A stretch of DNA of 64,000 bases from sequence record OQ446694.1; one strand, 5' to 3'. The number at the start of each line of letters is the position of its first letter. The first letter of the stretch is position 1. This DNA comes from Escherichia phage Killian. Made by a program: the position numbers and the translations under genes. Under the pieces are notes generated by a model. It was not told where the DNA came from and did not search any database. It saw only the letters and a list, made by a program, of their open reading frames with translations. Below are positions 52,029 to 53,165 of the stretch, piece by piece.

Positions 52029-52100
52029 TGGCCCTGGGTGGAATTGAACCACCATCTGGCGATTATGAGTCGCTTGCTTGAACCTTCCAGCTACAGGGCC
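52029..52100 (-). tRNA. tRNA with CAU anticodon (Ile-lysidine type or Met)
   Basis: hand-folded; acceptor GGCCCTG/CAGGGCC; anticodon loop CTCATAA. Confidence 0.6.
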
Positions 52101-52106
52101 TTGATA

Positions 52107-52179
52107 TGCTGATTGACGGAATCGAACCGCCGACATCCTCATTACAAGTGAGGTGCTCTACCTACTGAGCTAAATCAGC
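52107..52179 (-). tRNA. tRNA-Thr (anticodon UGU)
   Basis: hand-folded; anticodon loop CTTGTAA; T-arm GGCGGTTCGATTCCGTC. Confidence 0.7.
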
Positions 52180-52186
52180 GAAATTA

Positions 52187-52273
52187 CGGAGGCGATAGGA
52201 TTTGAACCTATGAGTCGCCGGAGCGACTGCCGGTTTTCAAGACCGGTGCATTAAACCACTCTGCCACGCCTCC
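52187..52273 (-). tRNA. tRNA-Ser (anticodon UGA)
   Basis: hand-folded; long variable arm; anticodon loop CTTGAAA. Confidence 0.7.
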
Positions 52274-52275
52274 AG

Positions 52276-52349
52276 TCTCCGCGGCAGGATTTGAACCTGC
52301 GACATTCTGCTCCCAAAGCAGACGCTCTACCAAACTGAGCTACACGGAG
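52276..52349 (-). tRNA. tRNA-Pro (anticodon UGG)
   Basis: hand-folded; anticodon loop TTTGGGA; T-arm GCAGGTTCAAATCCTGC. Confidence 0.7.
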
Positions 52350-52362
52350 TAAATTAAATTTG

Positions 52363-52433
52363 AGCGGATAATGAGAATCGAACTCACATCATCAGATTGG
52401 AAGTCTGAGGTAATACCATTATACGATATCCGC
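52363..52433 (-). tRNA. tRNA-Gly (anticodon UCC)
   Basis: hand-folded; anticodon stem TCAGA/TCTGA with loop CTTCCAA. Confidence 0.65.
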
Positions 52434-52439
52434 AAACTT

Positions 52440-52526
52440 TGGTACGAGAAGTGGGACTCGAACCCACAAGGAAATCATTCCGCAGCATTTTAAGTGCTGT
52501 GCCTTTACCAATTTGACCATTCTCGC
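52440..52526 (-). tRNA. tRNA-Leu (anticodon UAA)
   Basis: hand-folded; long variable arm; anticodon loop CTTAAAA; CCA encoded. Confidence 0.7.
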
Positions 52527-52532
52527 TCTATA

Positions 52533-53165
52533 TTATTTATTACGTGAAAAAGATTGTTCTATCAATTCTGGACACTTTCGTTCTATCCATTTTCTAGCTT
52601 TTTGTGGGCTTATACCTATTATTTTAGCAGCTTTACTAACCCATCCAAATTTAGAATAATCGATTTTAACTAATTCTTCGTAAATTTCATCAGTTAAAAT
52701 CTTTTCATTAATATTTACCAGTAAATGATATAATTTATTATCATTAGCAATTTTAATGAATCTTTTATAGTTTCCGCCTTTACTTAAACCTAATGAAGTA
52801 ATTGCAGATGATATAGTAGCCGAATTTAATAGTGCGTTTAAAATTTCTTCATCACTAACATTATAACGCTTTTTATTATTTTTAATATTTTTACCAGCAA
52901 AAGTATCAGTTTGCGAATGGCAATTTGGACATAATAATCTTAAATTTGATTTAAGATGATTTTTGTTATTTCCATCAATATGGTCTAATTGCAGAACAAT
53001 ATGCTTATTTTGCCATTTTGAAATTTTACAAATTGCACACTCATATGGAAAAATATTTTCTTTTATTATTTTGTCTTTCAGCTTTCCTGTACTAAAATTT
53101 GGATGTTTTCCTTCAAAAATTTCAGCTAATTTAGTATCCATAATATAATTCCCAATTATTAACAA
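52533..53165 (-). CDS. HNH homing endonuclease
   Basis: 210 aa; CxxC...HIDGNNKNH...CPNCH HNH/Zn motif; abuts tRNA-Leu. Confidence 0.65.
   Translation of the reverse strand: MLIIGNYIMDTKLAEIFEGKHPNFSTGKLKDKIIKENIFPYECAICKISKWQNKHIVLQLDHIDGNNKNHLKSNLRLLCPNCHSQTDTFAGKNIKNNKKRYNVSDEEILNALLNSATISSAITSLGLSKGGNYKRFIKIANDNKLYHLLVNINEKILTDEIYEELVKIDYSKFGWVSKAAKIIGISPQKARKWIERKCPELIEQSFSRNK

Follow-up and report, generated by a model that had tools for sequence, protein, structure and literature searches.

An HNH endonuclease gene in place of tRNA-Gln in the tRNA operon of Escherichia phage Killian and other Tequatrovirus phages

A stretch of 64,000 nucleotides (nt) of Escherichia phage Killian (sequence record OQ446694.1; this whole 64-kb stretch is referred to below as the window) contains a tRNA operon in which a gene for an HNH endonuclease has replaced tRNA-Gln, the gene that heads the corresponding operon of bacteriophage T4. 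The closest relatives of the region are Tequatrovirus genomes, and the window is derived from a member of this group of T4-like phages. The structural conclusion, a gene replacement at tRNA-Gln, is in our judgement close to certain. On balance, and with modest confidence, we further favour the full mechanism in which the cassette that replaced tRNA-Gln is a free-standing homing endonuclease acting on the tRNA-Gln-containing (Gln+) allele, an activity that is predicted from sequence comparison. What makes the case unusual is that an endonuclease gene has taken the place of a structural RNA gene almost base for base, and two other lineages show a similar situation at the same tRNA.

Replacement of tRNA-Gln at the head of the operon

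The tRNA genes were called with ARAGORN and with the Rfam tRNA model (gathering score 29). ARAGORN found seven of them in the window, all on the minus strand, and Rfam recovered the same seven with scores of 57-75 bits; neither program detected a tRNA-Gln anywhere in the 64 kb, nor was any further Rfam RNA family found there. The T4 cluster has the order Gln-Leu-Gly-Pro-Ser-Thr-Ile-segB-Arg-rnaD-rnaC, with its eighth tRNA, Gln, at the promoter-proximal end and 1 nt upstream of tRNA-Leu; the window has seven tRNAs and lacks Gln, and is therefore not a T4-type eight-tRNA operon. A previous interpretation of the same DNA, made from its letters only (the sequence-only reading), had described this arrangement correctly: seven minus-strand tRNAs without tRNA-Gln, split by a SegB-like GIY-YIG gene as in T4, with an HNH gene abutting tRNA-Leu at 52533 where T4 has Gln. 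The interval to which it assigned the island, 52029-53165, holds six of the tRNAs and the HNH gene, but not tRNA-Arg and segB, which lie outside it at 51242-51987.

The exact extent of the replacement was derived from a junction alignment of 16 loci, including T4 and KFS-EC3. Ten further loci with the HNH gene (HNH+) and five loci without it (HNH-) were fetched and searched with ARAGORN; together with the window, this gives 11 HNH+ loci. Read on the transcribed strand, the Gln+ allele consists of GTTAATAAT, followed by the 73-nt tRNA-Gln (beginning with TGGGAATTAGCC or TGGGAATTAGCCAAG and running to TTCCCAG), a single C, and GCGAGAATGG, the start of tRNA-Leu. In the window the same GTTAATAAT is followed by TGGGAATTA, TATT, an open reading frame (ORF) of 609 nt from ATG to TAA, TAT, AG, A, and again GCGAGAATGG of tRNA-Leu. 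The segment TGGGAATTA (53146-53154, minus strand) represents the kept first 9 nt of tRNA-Gln and is identical to positions 1-9 of this tRNA in both T4 and KFS-EC3, while TATT (53142-53145, minus strand) is, according to the junction alignment, the 4-nt 5' untranslated part of the cassette. The 3' junction (52527-52532, minus strand) is composed of TAT from the cassette, AG, which are the last 2 nt of tRNA-Gln (52528-52529), and an A at the position of the Gln-Leu spacer, which is a C in T4.

The 62 internal nucleotides (10-71) of tRNA-Gln have consequently been swapped for 616 nt (4 + the 609-nt ORF + 3), a net gain of 554 nt, and at the junctions the tRNA survives only as its first 9 and its last 2 nt. 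The chance of a 9-nt homology running into Gln is approximately 4e-6. Since these 9-nt and 2-nt remnants are present in the HNH+ allele, tRNA-Gln was the ancestral gene and was subsequently overwritten; the reverse history, an ancestral HNH gene with a later insertion of tRNA-Gln, is ruled out by the same remnants. The junction TGGGAAT(T/C)A-TATT-ATG ... TAA-TAT-A(G/A)-(C/A)-GCGAG is common to all 11 HNH+ loci, which indicates that the cassette arose once. tRNA-Gln is absent from each of these 11 loci and present in all five HNH- loci (ARAGORN), and the adjacent tRNA-Leu is 98.9-100% identical across all 15 comparison loci.

As the window covers no more than 64 kb of the genome, a tRNA-Gln might in principle have moved elsewhere, or it might have been missed by the detectors. 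We consider this highly improbable: ARAGORN and Rfam found no further tRNA in the window, T4 has all eight of its tRNAs in one cluster, and the gene is truncated to 9 + 2 nt at the junction. In addition, a search for a T4-like tRNA-Gln across the genomes of three sampled HNH+ phages (slur03, S2_01 and Lutter) found none, the probe matching through its flanks only. The sequence-only reading had proposed a rearrangement that removed or displaced tRNA-Gln; the junctions bear out the removal, and the three genomes without a copy elsewhere speak against the displacement.

The HNH gene and its product

The HNH endonuclease ORF in the tRNA-Gln slot (52533-53141, minus strand) encodes 202 amino acids (aa) plus stop and belongs to PHROG 14736. 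The maximal ORF, 52533-53165, would encode 210 aa, the length adopted in the sequence-only reading, and begins at a TTG inside the leader that is shared with Gln+ phages. The true start is almost certainly the ATG at 53141, because PHROG 14736 (HNH endonuclease) is matched from end to end by the 202-aa protein (1-202/202, E 5.4e-124), because the coding sequence annotated in relatives has this length, and because all homologues start at this point; the figure of 210 aa is therefore to be replaced by 202. A second PHROG HNH family was matched with E 2.5e-29. Between the stop codon (52533-52535) and tRNA-Leu there are 6 nt. In public records the gene is labelled 'HNH endonuclease', 'homing endonuclease' or 'H-N-H endonuclease F-TflIV'.

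Residues C35, C38, H54, N66, C71, C74 and H75 do not vary among 33 homologues, of which at least 90% also have D53. As judged from this pattern, the protein motif is a classic Zn-bound HNH motif of the form CxxC ... DH ... N ... CxxCH: the D-H pair, the conserved Asn and the metal-ligand His of the HNH superfamily catalytic motif are all found, as are the C35-x2-C38 and C71-x2-C74 pairs of a structural zinc site, both of them invariant in the 33 sequences. An AlphaFold2 model built on the 33-sequence alignment (predicted local distance difference test, pLDDT, 90.2; predicted template modelling score, pTM, 0.51) displays a beta-beta-alpha core at residues 51-75, with strands at 51-54 and 67-70 followed by a helix at 72-75, at pLDDT >90, and an all-helical C-terminal half. 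The pTM value suggests that the domains of the modelled protein are loosely connected. Weak local Foldseek matches of the model were to T4 EndoVII, McrA, Cap5, PacI and the Gme HNH nickase, and also to homeodomain or sigma-region-4-type helix-turn-helix (HTH) domains; it is plausible, as a tentative prediction from the model, that the C-terminal half binds DNA. A sequence search of the PDB with the HNH protein gave no significant match.

All 11 HNH ORF alleles are intact. Among their 18 unambiguous variable sites, 15 are synonymous and three non-synonymous, which indicates purifying selection on the protein; an intact ORF kept by selection, as expected of a homing gene, is thus present. Folding of the region before the HNH AUG revealed no hairpin that would sequester the ribosome-binding site (RBS), with z = +1.16 in a short and -1.59 in a long sequence context, neither of which is significant. 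From its position 8 nt before the AUG, the GGGA that was kept in the tRNA-Gln remnant may serve as a weak ribosome-binding site.

Distribution of the cassette among Tequatrovirus genomes

Matches to the region were obtained in 938 phage records, almost all of them from T4-like phages of Escherichia, Shigella, Salmonella or Yersinia. The HNH gene is present in 63 phage records (several of them RefSeq/GenBank duplicates) at 98.7-100% nucleotide identity. A 941-nt probe across Pro/Gly/Leu-HNH-leader, applied with a coverage cut-off of >=80%, is covered in exactly those 63 records, and 474 others match its flanks only. Consequently, 63 of the 537 records with the locus (approximately 1 in 8) carry the HNH gene here, and about 470 have tRNA-Gln instead. 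A T4 probe across leader-Gln-Leu matched 528 records and was fully covered in 448 of them, which have the Gln-Leu junction of the T4 type. The possibility, raised together with the sequence-only reading, that the gene occupies this site in all T4-like relatives, including those with Gln, is not borne out by these counts. Presence and absence at one locus among close relatives, a hallmark of homing genes, is what is observed.

Phage KFS-EC3 is almost isogenic but has an empty site. It shares with the window the seven tRNAs, segB and a 171-aa ORF (orf171, see below) at approximately 98.6% identity, and has tRNA-Gln but no HNH gene. The backgrounds in which the cassette is found are diverse: the operons have 6, 7, 8, 9 or 10 tRNAs, segB and orf171 may each be present or lacking, and the phages belong to at least seven named Tequatrovirus species. 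The leader variants TTGCTTGAG, TTGTTTGAG and TTGTTAGAG, located about 35 nt upstream of the cassette, each occur in both HNH+ and Gln+ alleles, as does each of two variants of the tRNA-Leu 3' end, about 90 nt downstream of it. These shared flank variants place the exchange points less than approximately 40 bp upstream and less than approximately 95 bp downstream of the cassette. No flanking single nucleotide polymorphism specific to HNH+ alleles, which could have pointed to an immunity change outside Gln, was found in the 16-locus alignment; the body of tRNA-Gln is therefore the sole allele-specific sequence.

A second swap of an endonuclease gene for a tRNA gene was observed in the same operon of Shigella phage CM8. 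Here a 202-aa SegB-like GIY-YIG gene (locus L012, 2174-2782) occupies the tRNA-Pro slot between tRNA-Gly (2829-2902) and tRNA-Ser (2078-2167), and there is no tRNA-Pro. The N-terminal ~106-117 aa of its product are 83% identical to SegB, and the C-terminal half is unrelated. CM8 also has the HNH-for-Gln swap, leaving it with six tRNAs only, and phage teqdroes may share the CM8-type Pro swap.

Allelic divergence was also noted among the tRNAs themselves. Two alleles each are distinguished for tRNA-Pro, by comparison of the window with T4, and for tRNA-Gln, by comparison of T4 with KFS-EC3; the anticodon stems are swapped by compensatory changes, with the T stems also swapped between the two tRNA-Pro alleles; unlike these, the Leu, Gly and Ser tRNAs are 99-100% conserved. 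The tRNA-Pro of the window has 89% identity to T4 tRNA-Pro over 85% of its length, with different anticodon and T stems. With the T4 Gln probe, 322 of the 528 matching records are only 90-95% identical, and the non-T4 Gln allele may thus be commoner than the T4 allele, as estimated from these overall identities. The tRNAs with divergent alleles (Pro and Gln) are those that also have endonuclease-replacement alleles, and the divergence could reflect nuclease-driven or defence-driven diversification.

Homologues in other T4-like lineages

A search of a database of 5.8 billion proteins gave just three full-length homologues with more than 50% identity, all of them metagenomic (68%, 58% and 58%). 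All three are encoded in syntenic positions in other T4-like phages, after gp2, gp3, deoxynucleoside monophosphate kinase, 57A, 57B and trna.x ORFs and heading the tRNA array. The first contig (L017) is approximately 97% identical to Klebsiella Marfavirus phages. Klebsiella phage VAC36, which lacks the HNH gene, has the order Met-Gln-Asn (L020), and L017 has Met-Gln-HNH: the homologue (L017 4001-4603, against L020 3991-4073; 68% identical) starts 14 nt after tRNA-Gln and replaces tRNA-Asn. Relative to VAC36, L017 has 11 substitutions clustered in the adjacent tRNA-Gln (L017 3936-3975), in its anticodon stem, variable loop and T arm, while the flanks are 100% identical over 200 nt upstream and 100 nt downstream. 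Such a cluster would be expected if the recognition site lay in tRNA-Gln, or if a piece of the donor Gln had been co-converted.

The second contig (L018) is approximately 85% identical to Erwinia phage Cronus (Roskildevirus), in which tRNA-Gln is the first tRNA and lies in a 222-nt segment (L021, 1798-2019). In place of this segment, L018 has 692 nt (3896-4587) with a 58%-identical HNH homologue, and no tRNA-Gln was found in L018 within 4 kb on either side. The HNH family is thus located at or beside the tRNA-Gln position in three lineages, and in two of them the HNH allele is without Gln. As side observations, the tRNA-His of Cronus (2254-2329) is also absent from L018, and the Cronus segment after Gln contains a tRNA-like T-arm remnant, GGTTCGACCCCATC.

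These loci bear on the question of the target. It is unlikely, in our estimate, that the HNH enzyme homes but recognizes something other than tRNA-Gln (a generic T-arm like SegB, the Leu gene or the leader flank), with Gln having been lost incidentally in the illegitimate recombination that created the cassette. Such a target would agree with the properties of SegB, encoded in the same operon, which cleaves a large number of tRNA genes by recognizing a conserved T-psi-C element (PMC2330249), with the replacement of tRNA-Asn, and not Gln, by the L017 homologue, and with the L018 cassette, which replaces 222 nt and hence more than Gln alone. However, the leader, Leu and Gly flanks are the same in HNH+ and Gln+ alleles, so that a target in the flanks would also be present in the HNH+ genome; moreover, all three lineages have the gene at or beside Gln, and the substitutions of L017 are clustered in Gln.

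Proposed mechanism and its weighing

The mechanism that we prefer, homing on the Gln+ allele, would proceed as follows. The HNH ORF would be transcribed with the tRNA operon, since it lies on the same strand with no terminator-like site in between, and an RNase P cut at the 5' end of tRNA-Leu, 6 nt past the stop codon, would set the 3' end of its mRNA; an analogous 3'-end formation has been proposed for segB and tRNA-Arg (PMC2330249). The protein would be a site-specific DNA endonuclease, with the Zn-bound HNH motif in its N-terminal part and helical, HTH-like modules in its C-terminal part. During co-infection the enzyme would make a cut or nick within or next to the tRNA-Gln gene of the Gln+ allele, and recombinational repair from the HNH+ genome would copy the cassette in, with short co-conversion tracts. 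HNH+ genomes would be immune, as their target, the body of tRNA-Gln, is gone. The cost to the phage would be the loss of a dispensable tRNA-Gln(UUG) reading CAA, a codon that accounts for 68% of the Gln codons in the long ORFs of the window; the tRNA region of T4 is dispensable in laboratory hosts (PMC2330249).

A number of results weigh against homing on the Gln+ allele. At the level of the protein, the match to the Pfam HNH family PF01844 is below threshold (17.3 vs a gathering score of 21.4 bits), and a Foldseek search of the AlphaFold2 model against the PDB gave no match at E <= 0.001. Neither a consensus promoter nor a strong Shine-Dalgarno sequence was found before the HNH ORF, and among IMG/VR viral contigs 126 pattern hits for HNH relatives were obtained, none of which was confirmed by tblastn. 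The usual arrangement in T4, in which such genes are inserted between genes and no gene is destroyed (PMC2988022, Table 1), is not what is found here; insertion between genes is not a defining requirement of homing, and the replacement of Gln is a departure from the typical arrangement. A recent sweep of the HNH gene is not proven either: its identity (98.7-100%) is not dramatically above that of its neighbours 57B (96-99%) and the tRNAs (up to 100%), and the sweep test does not discriminate. Finally, the allele could also have reached its different backgrounds through ordinary recombination between T4-like phages in the same host cell.

A rival view is that the cassette never was a selfish mobile element, or has ceased to be one, and represents a one-off replacement, neutral or useful (as a nuclease against host or competitor DNA, or through an advantageous loss of Gln), that was spread by ordinary recombination and selection. 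Purifying selection is compatible with any protein that has a function, recombination between T4-like phages is free, the tRNA region is not needed under laboratory conditions (PMC2330249), domestication of HNH proteins can occur (PMC10448857), and conservation of the HNH gene does not clearly exceed that of 57B or the tRNAs. We nevertheless hold this view to be quite improbable, in light of the presence or absence of the gene at one exact site with very short shared flanks, the similar swaps by homologues in two other lineages, and the fact that both the nearest characterized relative and the neighbouring segB encode homing-type enzymes (PMC2330249).

If the homing mechanism on the Gln+ allele is extended to the other lineages, a wider hypothesis can be formulated, which we regard as possible although we lean against it. 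An HNH homing lineage would have specialized on the tRNA-Gln locus in at least three T4-like lineages (Tequatrovirus, Marfavirus-like and Roskildevirus-like), making itself immune by deleting or rewriting the target tRNA; together with SegB-type swaps such as that in the Pro slot of CM8, it would be a main cause of the differing tRNA repertoires of T-even phages and of the divergent Gln and Pro stem alleles. Self-immunity by deletion or rewriting of a tRNA would differ from the situation of endonuclease genes in introns or between genes. Phage tRNA sets are thought to be important for codon supply and for escape from host tRNA-cleaving defences (PMC13096335, PMC10644984). If it is routine for selfish nuclease genes to overwrite individual tRNA genes, intragenomic parasites and not host adaptation would account for some of the differences in tRNA repertoire between therapeutic and model phages that are otherwise nearly identical. 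A natural test pair exists in Gln+ KFS-EC3 versus the HNH+ window phage or T4_ev151, which are approximately 98.6% identical around the site. The prediction is sharp, namely a cut within the tRNA-Gln gene, and the recognition site would be a new one.

Organization of the tRNA operon

The operon leader (53155-53240, minus strand) is present in Gln+ and HNH+ phages alike at 96-99% identity, and a simple sigma-70 consensus scan of it revealed no promoter. A MotA-box-like motif, TGCTTGA, was considered as the leader promoter and dropped, as it varies in relatives (TTGCTTGAG, TTGTTTGAG, TTGTTAGAG, TTTCCTGAG). Downstream of the HNH gene, and like it on the minus strand, the array now begins with tRNA-Leu(UAA) (52440-52526; 57 bits with Rfam), followed by tRNA-Gly(UCC) (52362-52433; 65.8 bits), tRNA-Pro(UGG) (52275-52349; 70.2 bits), tRNA-Ser(UGA) (52186-52274; 62.6 bits), tRNA-Thr(UGU) (52107-52179; 75.4 bits) and a tRNA with the anticodon CAU (52029-52100), all of which were found by both ARAGORN and Rfam. 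The seventh, tRNA-Arg(UCU) (51242-51318, minus strand; ARAGORN tct, Rfam 69.2 bits), lies beyond segB.

The CAU tRNA was labelled Met(cat) by ARAGORN. It is most likely a tRNA-Ile2, which would read AUA, because an identical copy in phage PaulHMueller is annotated as tRNA-Ile with the codon ATA, and because its best matches in E. coli (80.8%, full length) are annotated as tRNA-Ile. With blastn, the CAU tRNA gave no match to T4 tRNA-Ile and tRNA-Arg gave none to T4 tRNA-Arg, which makes each of them a different gene from its T4 counterpart; both are 100% identical to the genes of KFS-EC3 and RB33. These two tRNAs therefore have the anticodons of T4 tRNA-Ile and tRNA-Arg in unrelated sequences. 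On these comparisons, the array is a mosaic of alternative isoacceptor genes.

Directly downstream of tRNA-Arg are the homologues of two small stable RNAs of T4, rnaD (species 2) and rnaC (species 1) (50926-51241, minus strand), for which Rfam has no family. The segment 50900-51241 shares 95.6% identity with the rnaC/rnaD region of T4 and 98.8% with RB33, whose annotation includes both RNAs. A terminator-like hairpin with a T-run (50902-50925, minus strand) marks the 3' end of the tRNA/rnaC unit; the same sequence ends rnaC in T4, and it is the only terminator-like site in a scan of 50700-53900.

segB and neighbouring ORFs

The gene segB (51322-51987, minus strand) encodes a GIY-YIG free-standing homing endonuclease of 221 aa and divides tRNA-Arg from the other six tRNAs, as it does in T4. 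Its product matches Pfam GIY-YIG with 26.6 bits (cutoff 22.6) and PHROG 314 (homing endonuclease) with E 5.6e-49, and is 83% identical to T4 SegB over the full length of 221 aa, so that the identification as SegB-like made in the sequence-only reading is upheld. Folding predicts an RNA hairpin (51981-52021, minus strand) that sequesters the Shine-Dalgarno sequence and AUG of segB, with a minimum free energy of -21.4 kcal/mol and z = -6.28, none of 200 shuffled sequences folding as well; T4 segB has the same RBS-sequestering hairpin (PMC2330249, PMC2988022). The gene thus has the GIY-YIG domain, the full-length similarity, the position and the RBS hairpin by which SegB is recognized.

Three neighbouring ORFs vary among relatives. 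The 171-aa orf171 (53241-53756; PHROG 2290, function unknown) separates the tRNA leader from the trna.2 homologue. It occurs in KFS-EC3, RB33, teqhad, CM8 and phiD1 but is missing from T4, T4_ev151, slur03 and JEP6, and its presence or absence varies independently of the HNH cassette. A 187-aa ORF (50244-50807; PHROG 2280, function unknown), just downstream of the rnaC terminator, was found among the fetched relatives only in T4_ev151, EC.W14-2, Pu-Krd-SF5 and OMNI12. Within the phage collection, this ORF does not occur together with the HNH gene and orf171 in any record, and only one record covers at least 80% of 50800-53800. The trna.3 homologue (54053-54451) is highly mosaic, with 98% identity to OMNI12, approximately 70-72% full-length identity to T4, RB33 and teqhad, and, in other loci, 87-90% identity over its first or last half only.

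Comparison with known systems

In the literature, no description of the Gln-for-HNH swap or of a characterization of the enzyme was found. Free-standing homing endonuclease genes of the HNH and GIY-YIG types are well known in T-even genomes (PMC2988022), and the experimentally characterized T4 SegB is a free-standing homing endonuclease of the tRNA cluster (Brok-Volchanskaya et al. 2008, PMC2330249). Homing of segB replaces the tRNA-Met/Tyr/Asn/Arg segment of T2L and thereby changes the tRNA content of the operon (PMC2330249). Like segB, the HNH gene is located in the tRNA operon, is co-oriented with the tRNAs and has its stop codon a few nt before a tRNA; it is likewise present or absent in close relatives, and the allele with the endonuclease has an altered tRNA content. 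Unlike T4 SegB, however, the protein would have the HNH and not the GIY-YIG fold, its gene is located at the head of the operon and not between Ile and Arg, the cassette replaces one tRNA gene almost base for base, and the ORF has no comparable RBS-sequestering hairpin.

The closest characterized homologue is F-TflIV, the product of hegA of phage T5 (34.7% identity over 170 aa, E 1.5e-22), with an alignment that spans the HNH core and some of the C-terminal region of the window protein. F-TflIV (Akulenko et al. 2004) is cited as an H-N-H endonuclease with site specificity that is encoded among the tRNA genes of T5 (PMC2330249, PMC10644984). Like the HNH gene of the window, its gene is located in a phage tRNA cluster, directly downstream of the T5 tRNA-Ile2. 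The architectures of the two proteins differ, F-TflIV having an extra N-terminal LuxR-type HTH domain of approximately 55 aa and lacking part of the central helical region, and its phage family, the Demerecviridae, is not that of the window phage.

The T4 genes MobA-E belong to the same class as the window gene, being free-standing HNH genes of T-even phages with presence/absence polymorphism, and MobE has been shown to home (PMC2988022). None of the Mob genes is located in the tRNA region and all are inserted between genes (PMC2988022, Table 1), in which respect the window gene differs; the window protein has its own PHROG (14736).

The array as a whole resembles the T4 cluster in order, strand and spacing from Leu to Arg, in segB, in rnaD and rnaC, and in the terminal hairpin. 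It differs from it in the absence of Gln, in the non-orthologous CAU tRNA and tRNA-Arg, in a divergent allele of tRNA-Pro and in the extra 171-aa ORF upstream. The exchange of tRNA-Gln for the HNH gene is a neat case of a known kind of gene turnover, which will not surprise a specialist, and not a new system.

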